From Bacteroidota bacterium (GTDB lineage: Bacteria > Bacteroidota > Ignavibacteria > Kapaibacteriales > UBA961), in the NCBI GenBank assembly GCA_049317525.1, contig JBMOIC010000002.1:67912-131911 (forward strand): a DNA stretch of 64,000 nt, in the 5' to 3' direction. Position 1 is the stretch's first letter. Each line of letters starts with the position of its first letter. Positions 6,895 to 47,833 of the stretch are shown piece by piece. The notes below the pieces were generated by a model. That model was not told the origin of the DNA and made no database searches. It saw only the letters and a program-made list of their open reading frames with translations. The translations under genes were made by a program, and so were the position numbers.

Positions 6895-6902
6895 GAAGAA
6901 TC

Positions 6903-7367: not shown

Positions 7368-7543
7368 ATAACATCACCTTTTTCATAAAGGTTCATAGAA
7401 TGCTACAAATATAAGACTTATTTAGTCGGATATTCATAGAAAGTATTCTTACATCAATTATTATTGTTAATTAAAGTTTCTTGAGGATTTTAAAGGTGTT
7501 TAGCATATCTTAGGAATAGCCTAACTTTTGATCTTAGAGGAGG

Positions 7544-7577
7544 ATTAACAGTTAGTAAAGACTTCCTAATTGTTAAT
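7544..7577. promoter_or_regulatory. 12-bp inverted repeat with one mismatch (attaacagttag / ctaattgttaat, 10-nt spacer) just 3' of the birA stop and upstream of the suf operon
   Basis: The arms were read directly from the sequence. It could be a U-tract-less terminator for birA or an operator. No U-run follows it on the minus strand. Confidence 0.25.
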
Positions 7578-7592
7578 ATCTTTGATAGTGTA

Positions 7593-8327
7593 TCAATTCA
7601 AATCATAATAGATAGAATCACCATTGTCTATATATAACTTCTTATTATCTTTTGTCACATGTAAAGTTCCATTATTAGCTATAGATTCTACAATAGCTGA
7701 TTCACCTGAATGTACAATAGTGATCTCTTTTCCAATGATATTAAGTGCATCACACCACAATGTGTATATATATTGTTCATCACATTCTAGATATCCGAAC
7801 AGATTACTTAGTATAGAGCTTTGTAGTGATTGAATAACGACATTATCATCATCTAAAATCTGGGACAATGATATTGCTTTGTCTTTAATTGACTCATCAA
7901 ATTCTTGTTGAAAGACATTAAGTCCAATACCAATAATAACACTTTCAAGTTGAGAACCTATAAATTCTGTTTGAATTAGAATACCAGATATTTTTTTCCA
8001 AGACATATTTTGTCGAATATAAATATCATTCGGATATTTAATTCTTATCATATCTGGAGAAAGATATAAAAGCAAAGAAGCCTGAACAGCTAATACTGAG
8101 CAGGCTTGATAATAAAAGGGCGAAAGATGACTATTAAGCATTGTTGTAGAAAGAGCAATACTTAAGTATATATTTTTATATGAATCTCCAAACCAAGATT
8201 TACCATTTCTTCCAAATCCTGATTTTTGTGAATTTGAAGATATAATAACAGAATTAGAATATCTTTTTAACACTCTTGCTATCGTATTTGTACTTGAAAC
8301 AGCATCGTAATGGAGTATAAGACTCAT
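7593..8327 (-). CDS. birA: biotin--[acetyl-CoA-carboxylase] ligase (group I BirA, no DNA-binding domain)
   Basis: The BPL motif GFGRNGKSWFGDSYKNIYLSIAL resembles GRGRxGRxW. The start was moved to the internal Met (MSLILHYDAVSSTNT, ATG at 8327). This removes the 44-nt overlap with the upstream TPR gene and matches canonical BirA N-termini. Confidence 0.72.
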   Translation of the reverse strand: MSLILHYDAVSSTNTIARVLKRYSNSVIISSNSQKSGFGRNGKSWFGDSYKNIYLSIALSTTMLNSHLSPFYYQACSVLAVQASLLLYLSPDMIRIKYPNDIYIRQNMSWKKISGILIQTEFIGSQLESVIIGIGLNVFQQEFDESIKDKAISLSQILDDDNVVIQSLQSSILSNLFGYLECDEQYIYTLWCDALNIIGKEITIVHSGESAIVESIANNGTLHVTKDNKKLYIDNGDSIYYDLN

Positions 8328-10063: not shown

Positions 10064-11005
10064 TTATTTTAATTTAAATGATATTGGAACTGATAACCAA
10101 CACGCAATTGGTTTTCCATTTTGTAATGCGGGAAGAAATTGAGATTTCATAACCGCATCCCCTGCAGATTTATTGAATAATTCTGAATCAGTTATTTCTA
10201 CGATAAACTTTTTGGCTTTTCCATTTTTTCTAATTAATACTCTTAATGAAACCTTACCTTCTATTCCTGCTTTTTTTGCTAATTCTGGATAAACAAGATT
10301 ACTTTGTATGAGGGCGCCATCTACAAAGGGTTGCTTATTTACTGCAATAGTTTCATCAATAGTTGGATCTGGTTCTTTATCATCTTTAACTAAGAGTACA
10401 TGTTTTTTTCTGATATCAATATTGGAAGGATCTATCTTTAATGCATCTTCATAATGCATTCTGGCTGCATCTCCATTATTCTTTTGCATGGCTATACTTG
10501 CTAAAGAAGCTGATGCTTGCCATAATCTACTATTTAACTTCTTGGCTTCAAGATAACTTTTTTCAGCTTCTACAGATTTTCCAGATGCCAATAATCCATC
10601 TGCATATGCTAAATGATTCCAAGGGTCTTTTTCATTTGCTTTTAAAGCTTTCAATAAAAATGTAATTGCAGATTTATAATCTTTCTTTCTAGTAAAAAGT
10701 TGGCCTATTTTTCTATCTATGCCATAATTTGCTTCTTGAATCTTGCTTGCATTTTTATACAATATTAATGCAGAATCAAGTTTATTAACTTCAATATATA
10801 TGTCACCTGCCAATAATAAAATATCAGCATCTTTTAATTGATCTTTGAGATTACTCTGAATTAATGAATAAGCTTTTGTATAATCTTTACTATTGAAAGC
10901 TTTCTTAACAGCATCAATTGAACCATACATTGGTAATGTTAGTACAATTGATACAATAAGTACTTGTAACTGCAGAGCAAATGAATGATAGTGTTTAGTA
11001 TGCAT
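10064..11005 (-). CDS. TPR-repeat protein with a C-terminal TonB-C (energy transducer) domain
   Basis: TPR repeats are followed by …YPELAKKAGIEGKVSLRVLIRKNGKAKKFIVE…SVPISFKLK, which is the typical TonB C-terminal fold signature. Confidence 0.7.
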   Translation of the reverse strand: MHTKHYHSFALQLQVLIVSIVLTLPMYGSIDAVKKAFNSKDYTKAYSLIQSNLKDQLKDADILLLAGDIYIEVNKLDSALILYKNASKIQEANYGIDRKIGQLFTRKKDYKSAITFLLKALKANEKDPWNHLAYADGLLASGKSVEAEKSYLEAKKLNSRLWQASASLASIAMQKNNGDAARMHYEDALKIDPSNIDIRKKHVLLVKDDKEPDPTIDETIAVNKQPFVDGALIQSNLVYPELAKKAGIEGKVSLRVLIRKNGKAKKFIVEITDSELFNKSAGDAVMKSQFLPALQNGKPIACWLSVPISFKLK

Positions 11006-11006
11006 A

Positions 11007-11936
11007 TTAGTTCTCTTGAATCAAATTATACTTTGCAAAAACAGGAATTAATCCGCAATCTAAAAGTACTTTTTGAATATTTGGGTCTTTTTCCATAAAT
11101 GTTGCAAAGCCCCAAGGCAAATTTTGTCTTTTTTCTTTAAGATATGCAATAATAGGTATTCCAAAAGGATATTTTTTTTGTATAATAAATCCTTGATGTA
11201 CAATTTGAGGTGGAATACGTTTTCCTGTAGAATCTATATATCCTATTCTTAATGATTTTAATAATGGATTCTTTTGCACATACGATAAGTATCCTAATCC
11301 AATAGACTTCCCTTTCAAGACTTCCAACACGATTGAATCTCTAGAATCAATAAATGTTGCGATATTTTTTGCTGAATGTGATAATTGCGAAAAAAAGGAT
11401 ATTGCATTTGAATATTCTGAAGATTGTGCGCCCGGTATAAGTAAGATTGGTTCAGAACTTATTTTCTGAAAATACATTGATAATCTAATTTTCCCAGAAA
11501 TATAATCAGTTAATTGATTCATATTTAGTGTATCGATTGGATAATCTTTAGATACAAAAAAAACTAGACCATCATTCGCAATATGTATTTTTTGGAAGGA
11601 AATTCCAGACTGTTTTAAAAGTGAATCCTCATCAGGTAAATAATTTCTAGCTACAATAATACTCTTTGTCTTTTCCGAAAATAACTCAGCCATTGATGAT
11701 CTGGCATTTTTGGAAAACAAGGTTATATGTGCATCAGGAAATGCCTTTTTATATATAGGCATTGCATTGTTAAAACAAGTATAGATTGACTCGTCGCAAT
11801 ACACTGTGTCAGAACCTCTTAATGGAGATTCTATTGTTGAATCTGATTGCTTATCATTTGTTTCACAACTGATGAGCATTATAGATAACACTAGTAGAAG
11901 TATACACCAATTATATGTTTTCTTCATGTTTTTCAC
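11007..11936 (-). CDS. PstS-like periplasmic substrate-binding domain lipoprotein (the accessory protein usually found in Bacteroidetes TonB/Exb loci)
   Basis: Lipoprotein signal (LISCETN) and a PBP-like fold pattern. Its position after exbB-exbD-exbD-tonB matches the conserved FCB-group locus architecture. Confidence 0.5.
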   Translation of the reverse strand: MKNMKKTYNWCILLLVLSIMLISCETNDKQSDSTIESPLRGSDTVYCDESIYTCFNNAMPIYKKAFPDAHITLFSKNARSSMAELFSEKTKSIIVARNYLPDEDSLLKQSGISFQKIHIANDGLVFFVSKDYPIDTLNMNQLTDYISGKIRLSMYFQKISSEPILLIPGAQSSEYSNAISFFSQLSHSAKNIATFIDSRDSIVLEVLKGKSIGLGYLSYVQKNPLLKSLRIGYIDSTGKRIPPQIVHQGFIIQKKYPFGIPIIAYLKEKRQNLPWGFATFMEKDPNIQKVLLDCGLIPVFAKYNLIQEN

Positions 11937-12153
11937 TAACTGAATCTTGATTTTTCTTTATAAAATCTTTCCATTTTAACAAATACATTATTAAACGGAC
12001 AGAACCTACAGCAATCATAACCCAACCAATCCATTGAACTGAATCATTAGATTCTGTTGGTAAATTAAGCCAATTTGAAACAATAAAGACTCCCATAAGA
12101 ATTGTAATAACTCTTATAGAAATATTTAAATAATAAAATAAAGTAGTATTCAT
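11911..12153 (-). CDS. small two-TM membrane protein, hypothetical
   Basis: 80 aa with two hydrophobic helices. It overlaps the downstream PstS-like gene start by ~26 nt and follows a terminator-like hairpin. Confidence 0.3.
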   Translation of the reverse strand: MNTTLFYYLNISIRVITILMGVFIVSNWLNLPTESNDSVQWIGWVMIAVGSVRLIMYLLKWKDFIKKNQDSVSEKHEENI

Positions 12154-12157
12154 AAGT

Positions 12158-12211
12158 ACAAAAAAGCGCTGTGAACTATACTCTCATACGAGAATTAAAG
12201 TAAACAGCGCC
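12158..12211 (-). terminator. putative intrinsic terminator or attenuator after tonB
   Basis: On the minus strand, the stem gcgctgt…acagcgc (7 bp, with an inner tctc/gaga pairing) is followed immediately by UUUUUU (the A-run 12160-12165 on the plus strand). Confidence 0.4.
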
Positions 12212-12229
12212 TAAAATATAGTTAAATAA

Positions 12230-13003
12230 TCAACGTAAGCGAAACACAATAGGAATAACAACCCACACTTCAACAGGTTGACCATTTTGGGTAGCAGGTG
12301 GAAAGACCTGTGCCATAATAGCTTTTACAGCTGCAGGGTTTAATAACTCAGATGCAGTTTCTTCAACAATTGTTCTACCTGGTTTAGGCCTTCCGTCTTT
12401 GCCTATAAGAACTTTAATACTAACACGTCCTTCCACACCAGCCCTACGTGCCATTTCTGGATATTCGACTCTTCTTTGTAAATCAGGTAATACCCTTGAA
12501 ACAACTTCATTGTAATCTTGATCTGTTACAATAAATTCATCTGGACTAGGTTCTTCTTCTTTTTGAACAGATAAACCAGCATCTGTTGGTAAATCATCGA
12601 TATTTATTTGTTGCTGATCACCAATTTGTGAAGATGAAGTTGATATTTCATCTACAGATGCAAATATTTGATCAGGAGCTACCATAGCATCTGGAACAGG
12701 AACTGGATTTCCAGCTTGCGCTAAAGTACCAGTTACAATAATCTCAGGTGGCGGTGGCGGTGGCGCAGCATCTTGATTAACAGGTGTATCAATCATATCT
12801 AAACGGGCCATACTTCTATACGGTGTTTTATATACCTTTTTTTCTCTTAAAGAGAATGCAAATACCGCTATTATGCAAATGATTAAAAAGGCCATTACAT
12901 AATAGAATCCACGTAATGTAAATACCCTGATAATCTTTTTTAATTCATAAGCACCGTAGTCTTTTGAAGATATTACAAGTGTATCTGGAGTTGATAACAT
13001 CAT
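12230..13003 (-). CDS. tonB: energy transducer TonB
   Basis: N-terminal TM anchor, a Pro-rich spacer (APPPPPPEI) and a C-terminal TonB domain (…YPEMARRAGVEGRVSIKVLIGKDGRPK…VVIPIVFRLR). Confidence 0.8.
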   Translation of the reverse strand: MMLSTPDTLVISSKDYGAYELKKIIRVFTLRGFYYVMAFLIICIIAVFAFSLREKKVYKTPYRSMARLDMIDTPVNQDAAPPPPPPEIIVTGTLAQAGNPVPVPDAMVAPDQIFASVDEISTSSSQIGDQQQINIDDLPTDAGLSVQKEEEPSPDEFIVTDQDYNEVVSRVLPDLQRRVEYPEMARRAGVEGRVSIKVLIGKDGRPKPGRTIVEETASELLNPAAVKAIMAQVFPPATQNGQPVEVWVVIPIVFRLR

Positions 13004-13542
13004 AAGCCTATAATCTCCTCTTTATCTTTATCAGTTAAAGGAGCAATAGTAAACTTTCGTTCACGATTTAATTTTTCTGCTTGTAATGCTTGGGTAATTT
13101 TAATTTCTGCAAGATTTAATTCATCAAGGATATTAACTACAGTTTCGAAATTGACATTATCATCAATCTTGAGTACGGTAATTAATTCATTTTTTAAATC
13201 AAGATTTGATTTAATTGATTGATTTCTTAAATCTTTTAGAACTATTGGCTGAGGTGCATCTTTTGCTTGATTGTAAAAGATTTTACCATCGCCACGAACT
13301 CGAATAGTAAACAATTTTGATTCTGCAACTTCTACATCTTCAGTTTCAGGAGGAACTGCCATGTCCATAATTTGTGGCGTTGTTAACGTCGTTACGAACA
13401 TAAAGAAAGTAAGCAAAAGAAAAGTAATGTCTACTAGAGGAGTCATATCAATACGGAAACCAACGCGTTTTTTTGCTTTGCGTTTACTGTGTTTTCCGCG
13501 CTTCGGCCTACCGCCGCCGCCTAGTTCTCCACCACCGGCCAT
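13000..13542 (-). CDS. exbD: biopolymer transport protein ExbD/TolR
   Basis: The MTPLVDITFLLLTFFM TM motif is present. It overlaps the tonB start by 4 nt. Confidence 0.85.
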   Translation of the reverse strand: MAGGGELGGGGRPKRGKHSKRKAKKRVGFRIDMTPLVDITFLLLTFFMFVTTLTTPQIMDMAVPPETEDVEVAESKLFTIRVRGDGKIFYNQAKDAPQPIVLKDLRNQSIKSNLDLKNELITVLKIDDNVNFETVVNILDELNLAEIKITQALQAEKLNRERKFTIAPLTDKDKEEIIGL

Positions 13543-13551
13543 AACGTTCTC

Positions 13552-14121
13552 CTATTGCTCTTTGTCTGTTACAAAATTAAACTGAGTTTGACGACTTCTT
13601 CTCATCACTTCCATAACATCAGCTATCCATTTAAATCGTACTCTACGATCAGCATCAACAGCAAACTTTAAACTAGCTTGTTCAGCTTTAGATTTTTTCA
13701 TAGCATTAAAAGCTTTAGACTGTGTTCTTGTAGCTTTTACTAATGCTTCTAATTCATCAACTTTAATAGTTTTAATCTGTGATTTTGAAAGTTCTTTCCT
13801 TCCCGGTGTTAACCATTCAGAAAGGCTAGGATCTTCTTTTACCATATTCCATAATTCAGGGTTAGACACAGAATAATAATATGCTGTATCAGCTACTTTT
13901 GTAGAATCTAAAGCTATTTTGATAACCGCAACATCCTTTTCAGGAAGTTTAGAAGTATCAGCTGCAGATTTGGGCCTTTTTATCTGAAATTTTTGTTCAT
14001 TGTCGGCATCAGACTTAAATTTTGCCGTGAACATGAAAAATGTTAAAAGAAGAAAAGTAATATCTACAAGAGGGGTCATGTCTATAACAAAACCCGTCCG
14101 TTTCATTTTCACCTTTGGCAT
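13552..14121 (-). CDS. exbD: biopolymer transport protein ExbD/TolR (second copy)
   Basis: Same MTPLVDITFLLLTFFMF motif, tandem with the other exbD. Confidence 0.8.
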   Translation of the reverse strand: MPKVKMKRTGFVIDMTPLVDITFLLLTFFMFTAKFKSDADNEQKFQIKRPKSAADTSKLPEKDVAVIKIALDSTKVADTAYYYSVSNPELWNMVKEDPSLSEWLTPGRKELSKSQIKTIKVDELEALVKATRTQSKAFNAMKKSKAEQASLKFAVDADRRVRFKWIADVMEVMRRSRQTQFNFVTDKEQ

Positions 14122-14172
14122 TATTCACTCTCCAATTGACTGAGAATTGCGGGATAATGATTCATGCCGCTA

Positions 14173-15024
14173 CTATTTCTTAACTTTAATTGTTAAAATT
14201 TCCATAACTGATAAAATTGCTTCATCAATCATATACACAAAATTGTCAACCTTAGTTGTAAAGAAATTAAAAGATAAAATCGATACAATGGCGGCTGCTA
14301 ATCCAAAAGCTGTATTATACAATGCTTCTGAAATACCAATAGATAAAGCTTGTGCTGATACCGCTCCACCACTTGCTCCAAGAGCAGCAAAAGAACGAAT
14401 CATTCCAAGAGTGGTACCTAATAATCCAACCATAGTTGAAACAGAAGCCACAGTAGAAAGAATAACTAGATTCTTCTCCAAAAGTGGAGTTTCCAAGTTT
14501 GTTGCTTCATCAATTGCTCTTTGAACTTCAGAAAGCTTCTTTTCTGAATCATATTTAGTATCATTTTCTAATTGTACATAACGCTCAAGAGCAGAACGTA
14601 CAATATTAGATAATGAGCCTTGCTGTTTGGCGCATGCTTCAATTGCATTGTTTACATTGCCAGATTCTAGATTTGTAGAAACTGTTTTTACAAATTCTCT
14701 TAGATCTCCATTACCTTGTGCTTTATTGATAAACAAATATCGTTCTACAATAAATGTGATTGCTATAAAAAGCATACCTAAAAGTGCTGCAACAAGTGGT
14801 CCACCAGTATGAATAGTACCCAAAGTGTTTAATGGTTCATGACGACCAAATGCATCCTTAAAATTTCCTGGGGCTCCCATGAATAATCCCCAAATTAAAT
14901 CTGCAATTGCTAGCCACAGAAAAACTACAAAGGAATTAAAAGAACGGAGCATTGCATAGCTGATTCCTGCTGCTGCAAACAAAAGAATACCGACGCCAAT
15001 AACGACGTATGAAAACTGATCCAT
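14173..15024 (-). CDS. exbB: MotA/TolQ/ExbB proton-channel protein
   Basis: Three TM segments with the conserved C-terminal region (…TTLGMIRSFAALGASGG…), immediately upstream of the exbD pair. Confidence 0.85.
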   Translation of the reverse strand: MDQFSYVVIGVGILLFAAAGISYAMLRSFNSFVVFLWLAIADLIWGLFMGAPGNFKDAFGRHEPLNTLGTIHTGGPLVAALLGMLFIAITFIVERYLFINKAQGNGDLREFVKTVSTNLESGNVNNAIEACAKQQGSLSNIVRSALERYVQLENDTKYDSEKKLSEVQRAIDEATNLETPLLEKNLVILSTVASVSTMVGLLGTTLGMIRSFAALGASGGAVSAQALSIGISEALYNTAFGLAAAIVSILSFNFFTTKVDNFVYMIDEAILSVMEILTIKVKK

Positions 15025-23720: not shown

Positions 23721-25271
23721 ATGAAAAGAAGATCTTTCCTATCCTTTTTCATCCCTGATAATCAAAGTGATAAAGTAGAGAAACCCTTAAATGCAAGTAT
23801 TAATCCCTATACAAAGCCTTTAGATACTCTAACTGCTACTCATTTACTTAGACGCCTAAGTTTTGCCCCAAGCCCAGCTTTAGTAAAACAATTGATTGGT
23901 AAAACTGCATCTGAAGCAGTTTCACTGATATTGGGTAATGAAGAAATGCAGCCAACTGCTCCTAGCTGGATTAATACATCTACAGAGAATCCAAGAGGTG
24001 CAGATATCTATACTAGAAATGCAATCGAAGGAGGCTGGAGAAATCTTCAAGGGCAATTACAAACGTGGTGGCTTACAGCCATGCATAAAGAAACTTTACC
24101 TGCATCAGAGAAACTTACCCTGTTTTGGAGTAGTTTTTTTACAACAGAGTTTGTAAGTGATGATACATATATTCCACCTCAAATGCTGTATAGACAAAAT
24201 GCATTTATTCGAAAAAATAGATTAGGAAATTTTAAAGATTTTGTAAAAGATATCACTTTAGATCCATCAATGCTTGTGTATTTGGGGAATGTTCTAAACA
24301 TTAAAGGAAGACCAAATGAAAATTATGCAAGAGAATTAATGGAATTATATACGTGCGGTATTGGACATTATACCGAAGGTGATGTAAAAGAAGCAGCAAG
24401 AGTGTTAACTGGATGGAAAGTTGGAATGTTTAATGATGAGCCAGCCAAAAATGATATTTACAATACCTATTTTCACCCTCCAGATCATGATACTGGCTCT
24501 AAGCAATTTATGGGAATGCCAATCCCCTCAAGAGATGATATTGCAAATACAGAATATCTGGTAAAAGTAGAAGAGGTAAACGGTCTTATAGATATCCTTT
24601 TTGATGTACGAGCCGATGCTATTTCTAGATTTATAGCTAGAAAAGTGTATTTATTCTTTTTTTATAGCAATCGTGCTGTTGTAGATGAAGAATTTATCCA
24701 AAAAGCTGCCAAAGTGTTTAAAGATAACAAATTCGAAATCAGGCCTTTAATTGAAGTAATGCTTGGAAGTGAATTCTTCTTTAGTGAGTATATAAAAGGT
24801 GCTCAGATAAAATCCCCAGCTGAATTTGCATTAAGTATTTCTCGTCCACTCAATAAATATCAAGCCGATATGGCAAATGCATTAAAAGGTATGGATCAAG
24901 ATTTAATCGATCCTCCAAATGTTGCTGGGTGGGAAGCGCATCAAAAGTGGATTACAACGAAAACATATCCTAATAGAAAAGTATATATCGAGAACATCAT
25001 AAAAGCATTGACAGATGATGAATGCGTCAATTTTGTAAAAAGTTTTGATCAATATGATGATGCTGTAGAATTGGTAAAAAATATTCTTTCTATTTTACTT
25101 CCATTAGGAGTCTCTGATGGCTATAGAATGTATTTAACCGACGCAGTTCTGTTAAAAAATCAGCCTGCTTATGAATGGACAACCATGCTTAATTCAAAAG
25201 CTACGGTAGCGTTAAGAATTAAAGACTTATTAAATGATATAGTAAAAGCTCCTGATTTCCATCTCTGCTAA
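23721..25271 (+). CDS. DUF1800-family protein
   Basis: The N-terminal HLLRRLSFAPSP region matches the DUF1800 HLLRRAGFG motif. It is ~516 aa and sits immediately upstream of a DUF1501 protein, which is the canonical pairing. Confidence 0.68.
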   Translation: MKRRSFLSFFIPDNQSDKVEKPLNASINPYTKPLDTLTATHLLRRLSFAPSPALVKQLIGKTASEAVSLILGNEEMQPTAPSWINTSTENPRGADIYTRNAIEGGWRNLQGQLQTWWLTAMHKETLPASEKLTLFWSSFFTTEFVSDDTYIPPQMLYRQNAFIRKNRLGNFKDFVKDITLDPSMLVYLGNVLNIKGRPNENYARELMELYTCGIGHYTEGDVKEAARVLTGWKVGMFNDEPAKNDIYNTYFHPPDHDTGSKQFMGMPIPSRDDIANTEYLVKVEEVNGLIDILFDVRADAISRFIARKVYLFFFYSNRAVVDEEFIQKAAKVFKDNKFEIRPLIEVMLGSEFFFSEYIKGAQIKSPAEFALSISRPLNKYQADMANALKGMDQDLIDPPNVAGWEAHQKWITTKTYPNRKVYIENIIKALTDDECVNFVKSFDQYDDAVELVKNILSILLPLGVSDGYRMYLTDAVLLKNQPAYEWTTMLNSKATVALRIKDLLNDIVKAPDFHLC

Positions 25272-25308
25272 ATTAAACGAGTATACAAAGAACATTAAGA
25301 GAAATAAT

Positions 25309-26901
25309 ATGACAATACATCGACGCACTCTCCTTAAAGCTGGCGCTGCAGCTGGTGCATTAGCTACATTTGGTAATATTCCAGTTTTTGCATTAAATCC
25401 AGCAAAAATGTTGGGTACAAATGTTATGAATGATGATTCTATTCTTATTATTATTCAATTGTTTGGTGGTAATGATGGGTTGAATACGATTATTCCTGCA
25501 GATGATCCTAATTATTATGCTATAAGACCTAATATTGCGGTTAAAAAAGACCAAGCAAAACGCATTTTTAATTCTAAAGTGTATTTCCATCCAGCTTTAG
25601 TAAATAATGTATATAAAAATGGTTTCTTAGGTTTAATTGAAGAAGGAAGATTAGCTGTTATACAAGGATCAGGATATGAAAATCCAAATCTCTCCCATTT
25701 TAGATCTACGGATATTTGGTTAAGCGGCATTAATTCTTCAGAACCTGATGCTAAACTGAGTGACGGATGGTTAGGACGATACTTTTCATCACAATTACCG
25801 AATTTTCCTATTGAAGTGCCGGATCATCCTTTGTGTATTCAATTAGGCGGTTCTTTATCCATGCTATTTAAAAGCCCAAAAGGTGATATGGGGATTGCTT
25901 TATCCTCACCTGATGAATTCTTTAAGAATGGACAAGGTTCTTCAACTGGTCGCGATATCATACAAGGCAATACTCCTTATGTAGAAGAATATAATTTTAT
26001 TCAAGCAATTGCAAAACAAAGTGATACATATTCTACGGTTGTAAAATCAGCATATGACAAAGGTAAAAATTCACTCAATTATGCTGCAGGATTTCCAGCT
26101 CAAATGGCTACAATTGCTAGGCTAATTTCAGGTGGTTTAAAAACCAAAGTATATATGGCTTATTTAGGTGGTTTTGATACACATGTTCAGCAACAGAATA
26201 CAGATAATTCAGGATTACATCCCAATTTAATGGCTTCTTTAGCCACAGGTATTAGCCAGTTTATGGCAGATGCTTTATCTCAAGGATTTGCTAATAAAGT
26301 AGTTGGGCTAACAGTTTCTGAATTTGGTAGAAGGCCTTATGAGAATGGATCAAATGGTACAGATCATGGAACTACATCTGTACAATTTGCATTTGGCAAT
26401 AGAGTTCAAGCTAATGTATTTGGAAATGACCCGGACTTACAGAACTTTGATAGAAATGGCGATCTAGACTTTGATTTACAAAGAAATATAGATTATAGAA
26501 GAGTATATGCAGAAATATTACAGACATGGTTTGGGGCTACCAAAGAAGAAGTAACAGAGATTTTTGGTGAAAGAGTAGTTCCCCTGCCCTATTTACAGCC
26601 TCCTATAAGTTATGTTGCAGATTCATTTGCTGGTGAAAATAATAATAAGCTTCGTTATTCATGTAATCAATCTAATGGACAAAATGGACATGTTCATTTT
26701 GAATTAAAAAATCCTGCAACACTAGAAGTCAATATCTATGATATTATAGGTAAGTACTCTTCAACAGTGTATAACTCAGAAGCCATACCTGGACACTATG
26801 CAATACCTCTACACACTGAGTCTCTTCAAAATGGAACTTATATATGTGAAGTCCTTGCAGATCAAAACCGAGAAATACTCACTTTTAGCATAGTTCATTA
26901 A
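25309..26901 (+). CDS. DUF1501-family (sulfatase/alkaline-phosphatase-like) protein with a twin-arginine signal and a T9SS C-terminal sorting domain
   Basis: Tat signal MTIHRRTLLKAGAAAGALATFG and the DUF1501 core (IIQLFGGNDGLNTIIPADD…YAIRPNIA). The C-terminal ~75 aa (LEVNIYDIIGKY…GHYAIPLHTESLQNGTYICEVL…) matches the T9SS type-A CTD pattern. Confidence 0.75.
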   Translation: MTIHRRTLLKAGAAAGALATFGNIPVFALNPAKMLGTNVMNDDSILIIIQLFGGNDGLNTIIPADDPNYYAIRPNIAVKKDQAKRIFNSKVYFHPALVNNVYKNGFLGLIEEGRLAVIQGSGYENPNLSHFRSTDIWLSGINSSEPDAKLSDGWLGRYFSSQLPNFPIEVPDHPLCIQLGGSLSMLFKSPKGDMGIALSSPDEFFKNGQGSSTGRDIIQGNTPYVEEYNFIQAIAKQSDTYSTVVKSAYDKGKNSLNYAAGFPAQMATIARLISGGLKTKVYMAYLGGFDTHVQQQNTDNSGLHPNLMASLATGISQFMADALSQGFANKVVGLTVSEFGRRPYENGSNGTDHGTTSVQFAFGNRVQANVFGNDPDLQNFDRNGDLDFDLQRNIDYRRVYAEILQTWFGATKEEVTEIFGERVVPLPYLQPPISYVADSFAGENNNKLRYSCNQSNGQNGHVHFELKNPATLEVNIYDIIGKYSSTVYNSEAIPGHYAIPLHTESLQNGTYICEVLADQNREILTFSIVH

Positions 26902-26910
26902 GGTTTACTT

Positions 26911-27951
26911 GTGTGTAAGAAATTTGTAAGTATGCTTTCTATCTTTCTAATACTTTTATTAGGATGTGGGATTTCACATACTTATGCACAAAATACGCCT
27001 AAAACTATTCCAGCTGAATTTAGCCATATCGATTCTAAAAATGCTCCACTATATCTAAAACCATTAATTACAACTATTCATCAAAGTTTAACTTCAAGTT
27101 TATTCACTGAAGCTCATTATCAAGATGATTTTTCTTTAGGTTTTGATATTTCAATAGCTGCGATGCAAATTCCAGAAAATGCTAAAAATTATACATCAAG
27201 CATTCCTGATATTTATGTAAATAATACAAAAGAATATCAAACACTAACCGGAACTGGAATACTTAATCCAATTACAATTCAACAACCAACAATTTATGGT
27301 GGCACTTCAACGCCATTATTTGTAGTTGGACAAAACCAAACAGCAAAATCTTTAGCTTCACTGGACGGAAAAAATATTGATGCTATAATGGGATTACCTA
27401 TCATTCAGTTATCTCTCAATCTTCCTATTTATTCTCAAGGTAAATTTTGCGCAGCTTATTATAATCAAGGAGATGTATCTTTATCATTTCTAAGAGTTGG
27501 TTATAATCAAAGAATAGATAAGCTAATCAAAGGTTTGCTTCATGATCAAACAATGGCAATTGCATTGCATGGATCATTTAATGAGATCACTATGGCATTT
27601 GGTGATTCTATTAAATCGAATTTTTCGTCACTTGCTATTGGAGTACATGCAAGTAAGAAAATCAACAAATCATTTATGATTTATGCTGGATTTCAATGGG
27701 AGGATATTCAGGGAGGATTTGATGGTGCAAGAAAAAAAGTAAATGGCCAAATAGATAGTCCATATCCAGAAGTAAAAAACAATGAACATTTGCAATTTAA
27801 TTTTATGTCTGATAATTCATATAAAATGATTCTAGGATTAAAAGCCAAGTATGGAATTATTGATTTTTTCACAGATATTTCTTTAGCATCCCAAACAATG
27901 ATAAATTCGGGTTTTTCTGTATACTTTTTTCGTGATACTGATTTCTACTAA
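26911..27951 (+). CDS. hypothetical secreted/outer-membrane protein
   Basis: Signal peptide (…GCGISHTYAQN). The amphipathic β-rich composition ends in aromatic residues (…FFRDTDFY). It is 9 nt after the DUF1501 gene. Confidence 0.5.
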   Translation: MCKKFVSMLSIFLILLLGCGISHTYAQNTPKTIPAEFSHIDSKNAPLYLKPLITTIHQSLTSSLFTEAHYQDDFSLGFDISIAAMQIPENAKNYTSSIPDIYVNNTKEYQTLTGTGILNPITIQQPTIYGGTSTPLFVVGQNQTAKSLASLDGKNIDAIMGLPIIQLSLNLPIYSQGKFCAAYYNQGDVSLSFLRVGYNQRIDKLIKGLLHDQTMAIALHGSFNEITMAFGDSIKSNFSSLAIGVHASKKINKSFMIYAGFQWEDIQGGFDGARKKVNGQIDSPYPEVKNNEHLQFNFMSDNSYKMILGLKAKYGIIDFFTDISLASQTMINSGFSVYFFRDTDFY

Positions 27952-43878: not shown

Positions 43879-45897
43879 ATGAAATGTTTTATCATCATAT
43901 TCTTGCATCTTATTTCTTGTAATTTGTTTGCCCAAGATGAATTGAATCTTCGTAAAGATTCTATGATTATCACTAAAAGGACAATTCAAGACAAAAGTTC
44001 TTTTAGATATGGAATTTTGGGAGGTATTTCTTCAATTCAGAATACATCTTCTTTGTCTATAGTGCCTGGAGCAACAGATTGTGGCTATTTAACAGGCGGG
44101 AATGCACAAGGCACTTTTGGAGGTATTCACGTAGATTACTTTGTTTTAGATGATTATTTAAGTTTATCCGGTAGAATACTCTATGCAAGCAGACCTGCTA
44201 CATTAACAGCGGAAACATCCAATTATCTTGTATTAAATCAAGATTTGCAATATTCTCCCTTAACCATAGAGCATAATTTTACTACAGAGTTGGAATATAT
44301 TATTGCTGATTTAGGAATAAACTTTCAACCATTTCAAAACTTTCCTGTGTATTGCAGAACAAGCTTTGATATTGGCGACTCACAGATCAAAAACTCTTAT
44401 CTTCAGTATGAAAAAATACTTTCTCCAATCAATGTATTATTCCCTAATAATACAAAGATTCGAGTTACAGGTACAGGCTCTTTAGAAACTGCTTTGTCTT
44501 ATGGTGTTAATATTGCAGTTGGCGCATATATTGAATTTCAACCATCTCTATATATTAATCCAGAAATACATGTTCGCAAAGGTTTAAATTCTATTCTTCA
44601 AAATGATCAATCATGGACAATTTCATCAGTAGACGCTTCTATTGGAATAATGTATAGATATCATTCATCAGTTGAAATTATTGATACTCAATACATTAAT
44701 AATGTCCCTTTAATTCCGCCCCCCACTCCAATTGTAAATCTTATTCCGCCGGTAGCTATTGGAACAATTTCATCAAATCCATTATCAATCCAAGAAACAA
44801 TTGTCACACAAACATTTCCATTATTGCCATATATATTTTTTGACAGTATATCAACGGAAGTTACATCGCGCTATCTAATTGATAATAGATCTTTTACAGA
44901 ATCCAACTTGTCGAAAGAGACATTAAAAACGTATTATAATATGATAAATATTATTGCCAATAGGATGAAATTATATCCCCAAAGTTCTATACTTTTAACA
45001 GGAACTACCGATGGAAAAGAACTCTCATCAATTGCCAAAAGAAATCAATTGGCTCTGCAAAGAGCAGAATCTATAAAGAACATACTAGTTTCTCAATTTT
45101 TAATAGATTCAAAGAGAATTGCAGTCAAATACAGAGATGTGCCTGTATCTTCTTCTTCAGATAAATATCCAGAAGGAATAGAAGAAAATAGAAGAGTGGA
45201 AATATCATCTGAAAATATTGAATTATTGCAGCCTGTTATTCATACAAAGTTTCAAGAGTTTGCTCCTATTTATAAAACTCAAATGTTTAAGACAAGTGTC
45301 GATACCCCTTCTATTGTGCAATCATGGCGTCTTGATATTTCATATAAAGGACAAGCTATTTCCAGTATTAATAATAATGGAATACCTCCAGAGCAGCTTG
45401 AGATTGAATTAGATTCTAAAGATTTAATTGCATTAGGAAATTCAATAGATATATCAGATTCTTTGGATGCTTCTTTAACCATTAAACAAGATAATGACAT
45501 AGAACATGTATCTACTTGTAAATTGGCCATTAATAAAACAATGAATCAATTTGAAATAAGTAGGCTTAGCTTGATTGTTTTTGATTTTGACCAAAGTGAT
45601 ATATCAGATATAAATAAATCTATGATGAAGTCTTTTGTAAGAGATGCCTTAAAGCCTAATTCTATTGCTACGATTAGAGGTTCTACTGATAGATTGGGTG
45701 AGATTGAATATAATGAAGAGTTATCTGCAAATAGAGCAAATACAGTAAGAGATTATTTAAAAAGTATACAACCAACAATAAATATTGGGTCTACAAAAGG
45801 TATAGGTGCATCTCTTTTACCTTTTGATAACAATTTAGCAGAAGGTCGTTATTACTGTAGAACAGTATCGGTAGAAGTAAAAACTCCACGACAATAA
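43879..45897 (+). CDS. outer-membrane protein with two tandem C-terminal OmpA-like peptidoglycan-binding domains
   Basis: Signal peptide, β-rich N-terminal half, then two OmpA_C-like segments (…NQLALQRAESIKNIL…NRRVEISS and …EELSANRANTVRDYL…GRYYCRTVSVEV). Confidence 0.7.
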   Translation: MKCFIIIFLHLISCNLFAQDELNLRKDSMIITKRTIQDKSSFRYGILGGISSIQNTSSLSIVPGATDCGYLTGGNAQGTFGGIHVDYFVLDDYLSLSGRILYASRPATLTAETSNYLVLNQDLQYSPLTIEHNFTTELEYIIADLGINFQPFQNFPVYCRTSFDIGDSQIKNSYLQYEKILSPINVLFPNNTKIRVTGTGSLETALSYGVNIAVGAYIEFQPSLYINPEIHVRKGLNSILQNDQSWTISSVDASIGIMYRYHSSVEIIDTQYINNVPLIPPPTPIVNLIPPVAIGTISSNPLSIQETIVTQTFPLLPYIFFDSISTEVTSRYLIDNRSFTESNLSKETLKTYYNMINIIANRMKLYPQSSILLTGTTDGKELSSIAKRNQLALQRAESIKNILVSQFLIDSKRIAVKYRDVPVSSSSDKYPEGIEENRRVEISSENIELLQPVIHTKFQEFAPIYKTQMFKTSVDTPSIVQSWRLDISYKGQAISSINNNGIPPEQLEIELDSKDLIALGNSIDISDSLDASLTIKQDNDIEHVSTCKLAINKTMNQFEISRLSLIVFDFDQSDISDINKSMMKSFVRDALKPNSIATIRGSTDRLGEIEYNEELSANRANTVRDYLKSIQPTINIGSTKGIGASLLPFDNNLAEGRYYCRTVSVEVKTPRQ

Positions 45898-45901
45898 TAC
45901 T

Positions 45902-46414
45902 TTAAAATGTTATTGTAATAGCATTTATTACACTATTATACTTAACTGGAAATGAAGTTAATGAAGTTGCACTTCCAGAAGTAGGTTGTTTCACTACAAT
46001 GCCTGATTCCGGATTAAATTCAGCTCCATGGCATGCACAATATATATTTGAGTATTCTGTGTCTGGTGGTTGAACGGAACAACCTTGATGTGAGCATATA
46101 CTTGTAACAGCTAAAAAAGAGGATTCAGTTAATCGAATAATTAAGATGTCTTTATTATTATTTTGATTAGGTACATTTATATAGGCAGCCCCACCTACTT
46201 TACTTAATTCTTCTAATCCAGATGTATTCAAAGGAATATCTATTTGAGTACCATTTGATGAGTTTCCAGAAGGTGTTTCATTTGATTCACAAGATTGTAT
46301 GAAACCAGCCAAGCTTCCAGCACAGAATATGATTCCAGTATTTTGTAAAGCATTGGAAATGAATTGTCTTCTTGTTGGAATTACTGATAATTGGGGTACA
46401 ATGTTATCTTTCAT
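45902..46414 (-). CDS. Tat-signal Rieske [2Fe-2S] protein (high-potential type with the disulfide cysteines)
   Basis: Twin-arginine motif TRRQFISNAL followed by a hydrophobic segment. Rieske box I CSHQGC and box II CACHGAEF are present. 170 aa. Confidence 0.8.
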   Translation of the reverse strand: MKDNIVPQLSVIPTRRQFISNALQNTGIIFCAGSLAGFIQSCESNETPSGNSSNGTQIDIPLNTSGLEELSKVGGAAYINVPNQNNNKDILIIRLTESSFLAVTSICSHQGCSVQPPDTEYSNIYCACHGAEFNPESGIVVKQPTSGSATSLTSFPVKYNSVINAITITF

Positions 46415-46429
46415 ATATCAACTTTCATA

Positions 46430-47641
46430 TTAATAGTACAAATGTAATTGTGCGCCCCATCGAGATATATAACCTGGAGCTGAAGTATCGAAAATTCTAT
46501 ATTCTGGTCTAATTTCAATATTTGGCATAGGAAATATTTGTGCTCCAAATACCATTTGTTTTATGACAGACTGATATGAATTATTTACGATTAACTCTGA
46601 ATATTCAAATCGAGTAAAAGGCAGAAACCAAGTAGTTGCTTGCCAAGTAAGTTCTGCTAAATAACTTGAATTTTTTCCCTTTTCTCTGAAATCATTTATT
46701 AATGGCATCTTTCTGCTAGTTATATCTTGTAAGTTAGATAGAGACATATCAACCATGAAAGAAAGCTTATCAGTTAATCCAATCCCCATGAATGCATTTA
46801 TCAATGAAAATTCGTGATTGTGTAATATTGAAGTTCCAATATATGAATTGATACTATTATCAAAAAATCTAGGCCAATAGACAGCTCTAGCCGAATACAT
46901 CAAAGATCCTTTATCAATATTACTCACGCTATTTTGTTGAGCCGTAGCATTAGAAAACACACCTGCATTCACGGTTAATTCATGAATACTCTCATAAGTG
47001 AACTCAACTCCTGCAGCAGAAAAATAGGGAGCTAATATTGTCATAGAATTATACGGTGTAATAACATTTTCATTTATCCAACCAGCAGATAATTGACGAA
47101 TCATCATTGTATGATCATCATATCTAATGCCAATTGTTGGCTGAAAAAAACCAAGTCTTAATTGTGGTAAAGAATTATCTGATTGTACAATCACAGAAGC
47201 AGACCAAGATTGCTGTCCAGGATATCTAACTGGCCCTATATTATAATTCCCCTCAGCTTGTAACCATGGTAATAATTGATAATTGCCATATATAGACATC
47301 TGCATTGGTAGAATTCTTTGCTCTTTTGATTCATTTCTTGAGCGTATTAGTTGTAATCTCATATCAAAACCAATATTGCCTTTATTACCAATCATTGATC
47401 TAATAGAATCTTGTAATCCCCACAAGCCTTCAGCATTAATGTTTTCAGGATTAAATGCACCGACATCTCTATAAGAATACCAACCTAGATCATTTCTTAA
47501 ACCAGATCCTTGGCTATTTACATGGCAACTAGAACATCTATTTCCAGATATAAGTGAAAATTGAGGTAGCGCAAATAATTGTACACTATATATCAAAATG
47601 TAAGCACAACAAATAATCAAAAGGCGCATGATTTTAAACAA
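46430..47641 (-). CDS. outer-membrane fused monoheme cytochrome c-porin, Cyc2-like (candidate)
   Basis: Signal peptide (…VQLFA|LPQ). The mature protein has only two Cys, both in a CSSCH heme c motif ~12 residues after the cleavage site. The remaining ~360 aa is β-rich with alternating hydrophobicity and a C-terminal aromatic strand (…WGAQLHLYY), which is typical of OM β-barrels. Confidence 0.55.
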   Translation of the reverse strand: MFKIMRLLIICCAYILIYSVQLFALPQFSLISGNRCSSCHVNSQGSGLRNDLGWYSYRDVGAFNPENINAEGLWGLQDSIRSMIGNKGNIGFDMRLQLIRSRNESKEQRILPMQMSIYGNYQLLPWLQAEGNYNIGPVRYPGQQSWSASVIVQSDNSLPQLRLGFFQPTIGIRYDDHTMMIRQLSAGWINENVITPYNSMTILAPYFSAAGVEFTYESIHELTVNAGVFSNATAQQNSVSNIDKGSLMYSARAVYWPRFFDNSINSYIGTSILHNHEFSLINAFMGIGLTDKLSFMVDMSLSNLQDITSRKMPLINDFREKGKNSSYLAELTWQATTWFLPFTRFEYSELIVNNSYQSVIKQMVFGAQIFPMPNIEIRPEYRIFDTSAPGYISRWGAQLHLYY

Positions 47642-47833
47642 TTAGAATAAATTTATATTTACTTGTACTTGGCAAATCTATCAAATATTATCATCTATTT
47701 TCTATATTGTTTTTAACTTTTTTTAAAATTTAATCTATTCATAATATTCAGATTTTATGCCTTTAGTAATGGAAAATTAGCTATATTTATGATACTATTT
47801 TTTGTTGCAATATTTTTATCTTTTTGTATTTAG

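Follow-up and report, generated by a model that had tools for sequence, protein, structure and literature searches.

Cyc2 is the main marker gene for inferring microbial iron oxidation from genomes and metagenomes, and two adjacent genes of a freshwater Kapaibacteria-type bacterium raise the question of whether a protein of this kind is wired to a Rieske protein. The genes lie in a 64,000-nucleotide stretch of DNA (hereafter, the window). A preliminary description had read them as a Cyc2-like fused cytochrome-porin co-transcribed with a high-potential Rieske protein. We put at about two in three the probability that they form a small two-gene operon encoding a trans-outer-membrane electron-transfer module, taking the mechanism set out below as a whole, with a porin from an outlying and hitherto unannotated clade of the Cyc2 superfamily that occurs in Kapaibacteria and Ignavibacteria. 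The pair would probably constitute a previously undescribed route for electrons across the outer membrane.

Both open reading frames were confirmed in the window DNA, on the same strand and 16 nt apart (Table 1). Two starts are available to the porin gene, a TTG at 47641 (403 aa) and an ATG at 47629 (399 aa, beginning MRLLIICC). The ATG is more likely the true start because 399 aa is also the length of a homologue (P0001) with 96% identity. No terminator-like site was found in the spacer between the genes, which is consistent with their co-transcription. The gap is likewise 16 nt in two related loci (L001 and L002) and ranges from 2 to 13 nt in loci L004–L011. The operon promoter is presumably located in the AT-rich region shared with the divergent prolyl-tRNA synthetase gene. 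A promoter scan of this region, which excludes Bacteroidota promoters, returned only weak sigma-70-like matches, no more numerous than in shuffled sequence, and tRNA and Rfam scans gave no match.

Table 1. Features of the porin–Rieske locus, in window coordinates.
Feature	Position	Strand	Basis or remark
PetC3-like Rieske [2Fe-2S] lipoprotein gene (predicted), 170 aa	45902..46414	-	Pfam PF00355, E 3.7e-10
Rieske cluster boxes C107-S-H-Q-G-C112 and C126-A-C-H-G-A-E-F133	46016..46096	-	both disulfide Cys; Ala131/Phe133
Lipobox I-Q-S-C42, followed by acidic sorting-type motif C-E-S-N-E-T	46274..46300	-	conservation in homologues
Tat motif T-R-R-Q-F-I-S, residues 14-20	46355..46375	-	RR-x-[FL]-[LI] conserved in Rieske homologues
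Porin–Rieske intergenic spacer, 16-nt	46415..46429	-	terminator-free
Cyc2-like fused monohaem cytochrome-porin gene (putative)	46430..47641	-	stop codon 46430-46432
16-stranded beta-barrel, residues 88-403, aromatic C-terminus …QLHLYY	46433..47380	-	OprP-like model
D175-D176-H177-T178, in long loop between strands 5 and 6 (residues 167-208)	47108..47119	-	invariant
Haem c attachment motif CSSCH (predicted)	47522-47536	-	in register with Cyc2 haem motif
Cytochrome segment A-L-P-Q-F-S-L-I-S-G-N-R-C-S-S-C-H	47522..47572	-	C36, C39, H40 invariant; P26 nearly invariant
Sec-type signal peptide MRLLIICCAYILIYSVQLFA, cleavage predicted before LPQF	47570..47629	-	by inspection
AT-rich intergenic region, 192-nt	47642..47833	.	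common to divergent prolyl-tRNA synthetase gene

The porin sequence bears out the Sec signal, the lone cysteine pair of the mature chain and the HLYY terminus that were first described. Cysteines occur only at positions 11, 12, 36 and 39 of the 403-aa form. The signal/mature junction reads VQLFA/LPQF, and the only two cysteines of the mature chain form CSSCH (residues 36–40), the first of them being mature residue 12. C36, C39 and H40 are invariant in 34 relatives with 30–59% identity to the window protein. The loss of CXXCH in orthologues, considered at the outset as evidence against a cytochrome, was not encountered in either family, A1 (that of the window) or its sister A2. The structure model and fold comparison gave a 16-strand OprP-like barrel, where a β-barrel had been expected. 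The loop that carries DDHT is L3-like by its position in the model; this motif is invariant in A1 and in A2, whereas canonical Cyc2 have no conserved residue at the matching position, and it may provide a distal haem ligand or a site for metal binding. Other motifs conserved in the A1 barrel interior are GxDxRxQ, PMQ, E.RPEYR and Q.H.

Searches of Pfam, NCBIfam and PDB sequences with the 403-aa porin gave no meaningful match and recognized no cytochrome domain, and all members of its branch seen here are named ‘hypothetical protein’. This silence of the family libraries, like the low confidence with which the haem segment is modelled (pLDDT 39–49), would be expected of an ordinary solute porin in which CXXCH has a structural or metal-binding role and takes no part in electron transfer. 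We consider such a porin extremely unlikely, given the invariance of CXXCH in both of these FCB families, its registration with the Cyc2 haem site within the same A-x-P-x-F…G flank and at equal spacing, and the redox proteins encoded by neighbouring genes.

Cyc2 has been defined by a signal peptide, a single CXXCH, two sequence motifs, a porin and a minimum length of 365 aa (Keffer et al., 2021; PMC8406198). The motifs are AXPXFAR[Q/K][T/Y] upstream of CXXCH (screened for as PXFAR[Q/K][T/Y]) and PXL four residues downstream, and the required similarity is a BLAST E ≤ 1e-5 or an FeGenie HMM score above cut-off (PMC8406198). The window protein has the signal peptide, the lone CXXCH at the N-terminus and the C-terminal 16-stranded OprO/OprP-like porin, and its length of 399–403 aa is sufficient. 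Both motifs are missing. In place of AXPXFAR[Q/K][T/Y] it has A-L-P-Q-F-S-L-I-S, in which A-x-P-x-F and the three-residue spacing to Cys are kept; the corresponding motif of A2, L-P-R-F-A-L, is intermediate between the window and canonical forms. PXL is replaced by a stretch lacking Pro (CH-V-N-S-Q-G-S-G-L; family consensus CHVNxQGGGLRN).

Profile–profile comparison with hhalign aligned A1 with 71 canonical Cyc2, a set gathered from metagenomes through a DNA pattern that encodes the defining motif (97.3%, E 2.5e-11, 349 columns). The haem motifs are in register, with the porin segment matching A-x-P-x-F-A-R-[QK]-[TY]-G-x-x-C-x-x-C-H at equal three-residue spacing, and the signal regions also align, including the junction A-x-A/x-P-x-F (the slash marking cleavage). 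Most of the signal comes from about 35 N-terminal columns; the N-terminal segment alone gave E 5e-10 and the barrel alone E 1e-4, and control comparisons with reversed or shuffled profiles gave E 0.2–0.6. The link is also transitive, as A1 matches A2 at E 4e-63 and A2 matches Cyc2 at 99.0% and E 8e-18. Matches of A1 to each canonical sub-cluster range from E 3e-6 to 4e-8, and those of the sub-clusters among themselves from E 1e-17 to 5e-50, which places A1 at a greater distance from every sub-cluster than any of these have from one another. The similarity to Cyc2 that had been anticipated was thus found between profiles, but the canonical HMM gave the window sequence only 3.9 bits (10–22 bits for its relatives). 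Judged from its sequence, the porin is a detectable distant homologue of Cyc2 and not a canonical Cyc2: the architecture and the distant homology support the original assignment, and the two failed motifs and the low HMM score set its limit. At E ≤ 1e-3, 1187 representatives (50% identity) match the family profile, and all 150 matches listed belong to A1 or A2.

The twin-arginine signal and both disulfide-forming Cys reported for the Rieske protein are present in the 170-aa product. Its PDB sequence matches are the Chlorobaculum tepidum Rieske protein (8HN2, E 1.4e-5) and the cyanobacterial protein PetC3 (5CXM, E 2.2e-4), the latter match covering nearly the whole mature chain. The preliminary description had left open a soluble protein or one anchored by an uncleaved Tat signal. 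A twin arginine and a lipobox Cys are instead conserved in 62 of 66 homologues, so that the protein is predicted to be a Tat-exported lipoprotein, neither soluble nor helix-anchored. One relative has a weak match to Pfam UCR_Fe-S_N, under the cut-off. Our homologue search for the Rieske protein reached only relatives with at least 77% identity, and the AF2 model built from those was of insufficient quality (pLDDT 51). Following the lipid Cys, 62 of 65 homologues have Glu at +2, 47 have D/N at +4 and 45 have Glu at +5. The acidic net charge score over positions +2 to +6 is 2.2 for the Rieske family, compared with −1.4 and 0.4 for two other lipoprotein families from the same clusters. The resulting C-E-x-[D/N]-E motif resembles the surface-lipoprotein export signal of Bacteroidota.

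Assignment to the high-potential type was too strong. The disulfide Cys are there (both present in 59 homologues and both absent in eight), but the H-bond positions of the cluster are occupied by Ala and Phe, as in PetC3, whose CPCHGAEF aligns with CACHGAEF of the window protein; most homologues have x-A-x-F at these potential-tuning positions. Residues at the H-bond positions have been tied to the Em of Rieske proteins, and that of PetC3 is +135 mV (PMC10172866). As its CHGAEF is identical to that of PetC3, the Em of the window protein is probably about +135 mV, in a range of ~+130 to +160 mV and not near ~+300 mV. With its cluster ligands and disulfide pair, Tat signal and lipobox, Ala/Phe tuning and lack of a cytochrome b partner gene, it has the features of a PetC3-type Rieske protein.

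Other assignments of the Rieske protein were rejected. A bc1/b6f subunit does not fit, as a lipobox replaces the plain anchor and there is no cytochrome b neighbour; bc-type models score below cut-off (NCBIfam TIGR01416, 37.3 bits against 97.4; PetC, 26.1 against 250). The same is true of the arsenite oxidase subunit AioB (TIGR02694, 20.7 bits against 95.65), and the ~920-aa genes found 3′ of the Rieske gene in some relatives encode T9SS Ig-domain proteins, not molybdoenzymes. Rieske-type ferredoxins of ring-hydroxylating oxygenases or nitrite reductases were set aside in view of the Tat signal, lipobox and disulfide Cys; the relevant NCBIfam models fall far below their cut-offs and no oxygenase gene is nearby. 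In JGI, one close homologue is called a ferredoxin of the ring-hydroxylating oxygenase/nitrite reductase type.

As had been suggested, the pair is conserved in related genomes. A Rieske gene is located downstream of the porin gene on the same strand in 69 of 81 porin loci, and four of the twelve loci without one end at a contig edge. The pairing holds down to 33% porin identity and in at least three distinct flanking contexts. Ten MAGs have two porin loci each, and in half of these a Rieske gene occurs at both. Together with the invariance of C36, C39 and H40, this linkage indicates that the features of the two proteins are not due to chance. Further genes near the pair in relatives encode redox or periplasmic proteins, namely YceI, a di-haem peroxidase and a c cytochrome lipoprotein of the PSCyt1 type. 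Genes for cytochrome b, AioA or another molybdopterin subunit, or an oxygenase were found in none of the loci, extending to every locus examined what had been noted for the window. No cytochrome b-like gene adjoins the Rieske gene in the window or in 80 loci. We did not find the Rieske protein to belong to a different conserved complex.

The contrast with known cyc2 contexts also holds: none of 93 canonical Cyc2 loci has an adjoining gene for a Tat-exported Rieske lipoprotein, so this periplasmic wiring is seen in none of them. Five canonical loci with a Rieske gene within 3 kb were examined as pre-existing pairings and dismissed, as these are helix-anchored bc-type subunits; their neighbours are cytochrome-b-sized or multihaem proteins.

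The pairing could be a lineage-specific accident of gene order, with no interaction between a porin that acts alone or with carriers encoded elsewhere and a Rieske protein that has a separate, PetC3-like role in the periplasm. One or two further genes intervene between the porin and Rieske genes in most relatives, PetC3 itself (of still-unexplained role in cell-envelope homeostasis) is linked to no porin, and in the Ignavibacteria sister family A2 the porin gene is solitary. The lack of a Rieske neighbour in A2 suggests that the porin can work without one. An accident is nevertheless very unlikely to have survived three or more rearranged contexts, duplication within genomes and the divergence of the porins in most of the loci. 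Moreover, at two Rieske-less loci (L022 and L034) a gene for a class-I cytochrome c lies downstream in place of the Rieske gene, as in classical cyc2 contexts.

In the mechanism that we favour, the porin would be exported by Sec, acquire one haem c at CSSCH and fold as a 16-strand OprP-like outer-membrane barrel whose N-terminal end, on the periplasmic or plug side, carries the short cytochrome segment. The Rieske protein would fold and receive its cluster in the cytoplasm before export through Tat and attachment of a lipid to Cys42. In direct contact with the porin, it may then serve as the dedicated periplasm-side redox partner of the haem, replacing the c-type cytochromes or cupredoxins of known Cyc2 systems. 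The pore haem would oxidize a soluble extracellular reductant, such as Fe2+, and hand the electron to the Rieske cluster, from which it would enter the respiratory chain. An inward direction of flow is most likely by analogy with the three biochemically characterized Cyc2 proteins, all of which are Fe(II) oxidases (PMC8406198), and the same analogy suggests Fe(II) oxidation by the porin of the window. No oxidase, ACIII or bc complex that could be the downstream acceptor is encoded within the 64 kb; matches for the 30 further window ORFs that were annotated are all non-respiratory and mostly to housekeeping genes.

Flow in the opposite direction, which we judge unlikely, would take electrons from the menaquinol pool to a low-potential Rieske protein, possibly via YceI or another quinone carrier of the periplasm or via a partner in the inner membrane, and from there to the porin haem and an extracellular acceptor. 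Fe(III) chelates, humic quinones or O2-derived oxidants could serve as acceptors, for respiration, redox balancing or reductive iron acquisition. Several observations are in keeping with this. Ala/Phe tuning of the PetC3 kind is seen in menaquinol-linked Rieske proteins (+135 to +160 mV). In ~20 loci, YceI-like genes separate the porin gene from the Rieske gene, and YceI proteins bind polyisoprenoids. T9SS-secreted proteins with a C-x4-CH motif or a Reeler domain are encoded 3′ of the Rieske gene in ~9 loci. The porin–Rieske pair belongs to the syntenic core of heterotrophic freshwater lineages found in ordinary oxic lakes and is not an island in iron-oxidisers; this setting fits poorly with lithotrophic Fe(II) oxidation. 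Fe(III)-reducing taxa, Ignavibacteriaceae among them, are also reported to have Cyc2 homologues (PMC6344600). Against outward flow are the Fe(II)-oxidizing activity of all three characterized Cyc2 proteins and the fact that quinol oxidation by a Rieske protein lacking a cytochrome b Qo site is not known. In addition, the clade of the window has no nearby genes for YceI or the secreted proteins; a six-frame search of the window for YceI, a PSCyt1-like cytochrome, a 2-TM protein of 100 aa and a 350-aa lipoprotein, whose genes flank the pair in relatives, found none of them.

If the Rieske lipoprotein stayed at the inner membrane, where PetC3 is retained, the short linker would not extend to the outer membrane and a further carrier would be required. 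In a cytochrome-b-independent relay at the outer membrane, which seems to us rather doubtful, the acidic C-E-x-[D/N]-E motif would direct the Rieske protein to the outer membrane, or as far as the cell surface, for docking on the haem porin. With such a relay, Kapaibacteria that are common in fresh water and groundwater could exchange electrons with the outside through a minimal set of two proteins, and it would be the first function proposed for orphan Rieske lipoproteins of the PetC3 type. Cyc2 surveys based on motifs or HMMs would then have missed a large branch of the superfamily, with the 1187 representatives noted above.

Within the Cyc2 superfamily, the window locus falls in a large, unannotated and highly divergent branch from Kapaibacteria and Ignavibacteria. 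Because the published motif filter would exclude this branch and a canonical HMM hardly detects it, it may be undercounted when lakes, aquifers and bioreactors are surveyed for extracellular electron transfer. The porin also offers a testable partner for PetC3-type Rieske lipoproteins, the function of which has been unexplained since 2016. If the two proteins do exchange electrons with the outside, they would be among the smallest trans-outer-membrane electron conduits known, and the conduit would be a core feature of abundant heterotrophs that are not regarded as iron bacteria.

Among known systems, the phosphate-selective porins OprP and OprO (PDB 2O4V, 4RJW) differ from the window porin in that OprP has no cytochrome segment or redox function. 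MtrCAB, MtoAB and PioAB share with it an outer-membrane barrel and, as we infer for the window, electron transfer through haem. These systems have a separate decahaem cytochrome in a ~26-strand barrel, and the single CXXCH fused to 16 strands here rules out a complex of the MtrAB/PioAB type.

The C. tepidum Rieske protein, the best PDB sequence match and from a sister lineage within the Bacteroidota, is the subunit of a menaquinol-oxidizing bc-type complex, with a disulfide, a Ser to Ala replacement (CPCHGAKY) and an Em of +160 mV (PMC10172866). It works in a complex with cytochrome b and keeps Tyr at the second H-bond position, where the window protein has Phe. The latter is a predicted lipoprotein with no cytochrome b gene nearby, whereas typical bc-type subunits are helix-anchored. 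The Synechocystis Rieske lipoprotein PetC3 (PDB 5CXM; Veit et al., 2016) was compared as well. Like the window protein, it is small and stands alone, has a Tat signal, lipobox and disulfide, and lacks a cytochrome b partner. A Gly/Asn/Ser linker follows the lipid Cys in each and includes ‘GNSSNG’, and in both the H-bond positions within CHGAEF are taken by Ala and Phe. Overall sequence similarity is low (E 2.2e-4), and the acidic C-E-x-[DN]-E motif and the genetic tie to a haem porin distinguish the window protein from PetC3, which has no known porin partner.

The porin was compared with the Cyc2 of Mariprofundus ferrooxydans PV-1, the Cyc2 of Acidithiobacillus ferrooxidans and the Leptospirillum Cyt572 (clusters 1–3; McAllister, 2020; Keffer, 2021). 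It shares with them a signal peptide, a lone CXXCH that follows ~12 residues after cleavage, the A-x-P-x-F…G-x-x-C-x-x-C-H motif at equal spacing, and an OprP-like barrel of 16 strands in a protein of ~400 aa with an aromatic C-terminus. It differs in having S-L-I-S for A-R-[Q/K]-[T/Y] and VNSQGSG for PXL, and in a barrel interior that is strongly conserved across A1, whereas canonical Cyc2 barrels are hardly conserved. The window family occurs in the FCB group and canonical Cyc2 in Proteobacteria, Nitrospirota and Chlorobium, and where a cytochrome c or cupredoxin is the partner of Cyc2, the partner here would be a Rieske lipoprotein.

Both genes of interest, encoding a Cyc2-like haem porin and a Rieske protein, lie on the minus strand of the window at exactly the coordinates of the preliminary description, separated by a 16-nt spacer in which no terminator-like element was found. 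The mechanical ORF call starts the porin at a TTG (MFKIMRLL…), but the in-frame ATG at 47629 is more plausible, because it gives a better signal peptide and a 399-aa product (beginning MRLLIICCAYILIYSVQLFA and continuing, past the predicted signal cleavage site, with LPQF…) that equals in length the 96%-identical homologue P0001. Convergent with the Rieske gene, with stop codons 4 nt apart, is a gene for one of the two large OmpA-family proteins of the window, and this gene order is kept across the window clade (L001–L011). Nucleotide identity to L002, from a complete-chromosome Bacteroidota MAG (Lake Mendota), is 94.4% over 17 kb. None of the accessory genes known from porin–Rieske loci of relatives occurs within the 64-kb window, and the 30 further annotated ORFs, mostly housekeeping, include no respiratory-chain genes. 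Neither tRNA genes nor Rfam families at the gathering threshold were found in the whole window (1-64000), which has a GC content of 29–35% throughout. Genes for DUF-domain proteins, all of unknown function, were also identified.

Positions of genes in the window, in loci of relatives and in sister-family loci
Locus	Feature	Coordinates	Strand	Remarks
Window	Cyc2-like porin gene	46430..47641	-	403 aa from TTG at 47641
Window	Rieske gene	45902..46414	-	170 aa
Window	OmpA-family protein	43879-45897	+	two OmpA-like domains
Window	OmpA-family protein	269-2065	-	
Window	DUF1800/DUF1501 genes	23721-26901		side by side
Window	DUF6588 protein	26911-27951		follows DUF1800/DUF1501 genes
L014	Rieske homologue	10394-10882		
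L027	~100-aa two-TM protein	9184-9492		
L032	~100-aa two-TM protein	9182-9499		
L028	T9SS-tailed proteins	10924-13686 and 13730-14596		
L036	di-haem cytochrome c peroxidase	6474-7820		
L041	PSCyt1-type lipoprotein	1618-2022		
L201, L202, L203, L204	A2 porin gene	6001-~7100		

The 403-aa porin product has cysteines only at residues 11, 12, 36 and 39. Thus, the mature protein holds just two, both in the CSSCH motif and the first at mature residue 12, as originally claimed. The C-terminus reads …QLHLYY. Searches of Pfam, NCBIfam and PDB sequences did not recognise the family, and 118/118 homologue clusters, nearly all derived from MAGs of Kapaibacteria and Ignavibacteria, carry the name 'hypothetical protein'. 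Across 34 aligned relatives (30–59% identity to the window porin), C36, C39 and H40 never vary, which rules out an incidental CXXCH.

Cyc2 has been defined by a signal peptide, a single CXXCH, a 16-strand porin and a length of at least 365 aa, with the motifs AXPXFAR[Q/K][T/Y] just upstream of CXXCH and PXL four residues downstream (Keffer et al., 2021, PMC8406198). A DNA pattern for PxFAR[Q/K][T/Y]…CxxCH, run against metagenome contigs, retrieved 72 complete ORFs with all canonical features. Three residues separate the motif from the first Cys in nearly all 72, and the spacing is identical in the window family (A-L-P-Q-F-S-L-I-S, G-N-R, then C-S-S-C-H). Profile–profile comparison of the window porin family (A1) with 71 canonical Cyc2 gave 97.3% probability (E 2.5e-11) over 349 collinear columns, with haem motifs in register. 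In hhalign controls, the N-terminal cytochrome segment alone gave E 5e-10 and the barrel alone E 1e-4 (258 collinear columns), compared with E 1e-4 to 1e-3 for block-shuffled profiles and E 0.2–0.6 for reversed or column-shuffled ones. Most of the signal thus stems from the cytochrome segment, and the barrel adds weak collinear support. A plain canonical Cyc2 HMM gives the window porin only 3.9 bits, and both A-R-[Q/K]-[T/Y] and PXL are missing. The earlier Cyc2 assignment holds for architecture and distant homology but not under the published definition, and we conclude that the window porin is probably a member of an outlying Cyc2-superfamily clade that shares this architecture. Motif-filtered or HMM-based Cyc2 screens would very probably miss this clade.

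An exhaustive profile search with the porin family returned 1187 representatives at E <= 1e-3. The most distant full-length matches listed carry L-P-R-F-A-L…C-x-x-C-H-x-N-P-T-G-G, a form lying between the window motif and that of canonical Cyc2. A sister family, A2 (at least 527 clusters, all 'hypothetical', the named matches all from Ignavibacteria), has the motifs LPRFAL…CxxCH.NPTGG and DDHT and links A1 to canonical Cyc2. A1 matches A2 with 100% probability (E 4e-63), and A2 matches canonical Cyc2 with 99.0% (E 8e-18). Canonical sub-clusters match each other at 98.9–100% (E 1e-17 to 5e-50); A2 matches them at 95.8–97.7% (E 1e-9 to 2.5e-12) and A1 at 88.0–95.0% (E 3e-6 to 4e-8). In canonical Cyc2, conservation is almost confined to the cytochrome segment, whereas A1 and A2 also strongly conserve the barrel interior (GxDxRxQ, an invariant Met, E.RPEYR, Q.H..Y), and share G..P..G.R.DDHT in a long L3-like loop. 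We speculate that these conserved residues could provide a distal haem ligand or metal site.

The window Rieske protein matches the Pfam Rieske family (E 3.7e-10) and has the features first ascribed to it, a twin-arginine motif (TRRQFIS) and both cluster boxes with the extra disulfide Cys (CSHQGC…CACHG). All Rieske homologues have a Tat motif, and 62 of 66 have a lipobox Cys at the end of the hydrophobic region. Thus, we infer a Tat-exported lipoprotein, contradicting the soluble or uncleaved-Tat-helix forms initially proposed. An acidic motif after the lipid Cys, C-E-x-[D/N]-E-[T/S], is remarkably well conserved (Glu at +2 in 62/65 homologues); over positions +2 to +6 it has a net charge score of 2.2 acidic, compared with scores of −1.4 and 0.4 in two further lipoprotein families of the same clusters. 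It is similar to the signal for surface-lipoprotein export in Bacteroidota, in which at least two acidic residues come after a polar one (Lauber 2016), and may equally well serve for retention in the inner membrane. The disulfide Cys are both present in 59 homologues and both absent in eight. In one relative's locus (L014), the second cluster box reads C-D-Q-P-G-C-G-H in place of C-x-C-H.

Among PDB sequences, the best matches are the soluble domain of the Chlorobaculum tepidum Rieske (8HN2) and PetC3 (5CXM), a plasma-membrane-anchored cyanobacterial Rieske lipoprotein of unknown function (PMC10172866). The PetC3 alignment spans nearly the whole mature window protein, with CHGAEF identical in both. 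Em values are +160 mV for the C. tepidum protein, +135 mV for PetC3 and about +300 mV for bc1/b6f; the low values are attributed to Ser→Ala and Tyr→Phe (PMC10172866), at exactly the CHGAEF positions compared here. The window Rieske potential is probably at the low end. Designation as a 'high-potential type' is thus only half right, appropriate to the disulfide-bearing bc-like fold but not to the likely potential. The linker after the lipid Cys, GNSSNG, is also identical in PetC3, probably by coincidence, as overall similarity to 5CXM is otherwise low (E 2.2e-4).

A same-strand Rieske homologue occurs within 2.2 kb downstream of the porin at 69 of 81 loci, so the pair is conserved in relatives, in differing contexts. 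Four of the 12 loci without Rieske end at a contig edge, and two Rieske-less loci have a class-I cytochrome c downstream instead. Twelve loci (the window clade) have only porin and Rieske, between proS and the OmpA-family gene. In 35 loci the order is panB, PSCyt1-type c-cytochrome lipoprotein, ~350-aa lipoprotein, porin, two-TM ~100-aa protein, Rieske and rsmB; in about 18 it is porin, two-TM protein, YceI-like and Rieske, followed in nine by T9SS-secreted Ig or Reeler proteins. Ten MAGs have two porin loci, five of them with a Rieske gene at both. The lack of a cytochrome b, arsenite-oxidase or oxygenase partner, first remarked on in the window, extends to all loci examined, where no cytochrome b, molybdopterin subunit or oxygenase genes were found.

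The two-TM protein (two predicted helices) directly follows the porin in most relatives (44–57 loci, e.g., L032 and L027); it has no family match, and its gene is absent from the window. Also absent there is the PSCyt1-type lipoprotein, ~134 aa and upstream of the porin in 47 loci (Pfam PSCyt1 26.6 bits, cut-off 22; e.g., L041), with a haem-type motif of CX4CH in 36 loci and CXXCH in 13. At L036, a di-haem cytochrome c peroxidase (PF03150, E 3.8e-50) is encoded between porin and Rieske. Two T9SS-tailed proteins follow Rieske in about nine loci (e.g., L015, L016, L028, L030, L031, L040), one of ~920 aa with Ig domains and an N-terminal 'GCGGVDCHA' (C-x4-CH), the other of ~290 aa with a Reeler domain. 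These may be secreted or surface redox proteins tied to the porin–Rieske module.

The best-supported reading is a two-protein module for electron transfer across the outer membrane. In it, a 16-strand porin with a fused monohaem cytochrome would be served, on the periplasmic side, by a dedicated lipid-anchored Rieske cluster in the role held by cytochromes c or cupredoxins of known Cyc2 systems. Inward flow, in which a soluble reductant such as Fe2+ would be oxidised in the pore, is the default by analogy with three characterised Cyc2 proteins. Several observations fit outward flow equally well, namely the occurrence of the pair as syntenic core genes in heterotrophs of ordinary lakes and groundwater, the PetC3-like potential of the Rieske protein, and the YceI and secreted C-x4-CH proteins encoded at relatives' loci.

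FeGenie-based surveys have described Ignavibacteriales with fused cytochrome-porin genes and Ignavibacteriaceae with Cyc2 homologues (PMC6344600). In the literature searched, we found no publication that describes Cyc2 from Kapabacteria or pairs Cyc2 with a Rieske protein; the pair, a wholly computational finding, is of interest to specialists. The A2 porin gene is solitary, with unrelated neighbours and no Rieske gene (L201–L204), and an adjacent lipoprotein Rieske gene occurs at 0/93 canonical Cyc2 loci. At five of the 93 (L089, L091, L116, L154, L164) the same strand carries a helix-anchored bc-type Rieske gene at a distance of 1.3–2.7 kb, among cytochrome-b-sized or multihaem neighbours (ORFs with 6–8 CXXCH at L089, L154 and L164); these Cyc2–Rieske neighbourhoods are of another kind. 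A small CXXCH ORF is found within 1.5 kb at 26 of 76 canonical loci. Thus, the lipoprotein-Rieske partnership is specific to the A1 clade and has been kept through rearrangement and duplication, unlike known cyc2 contexts.
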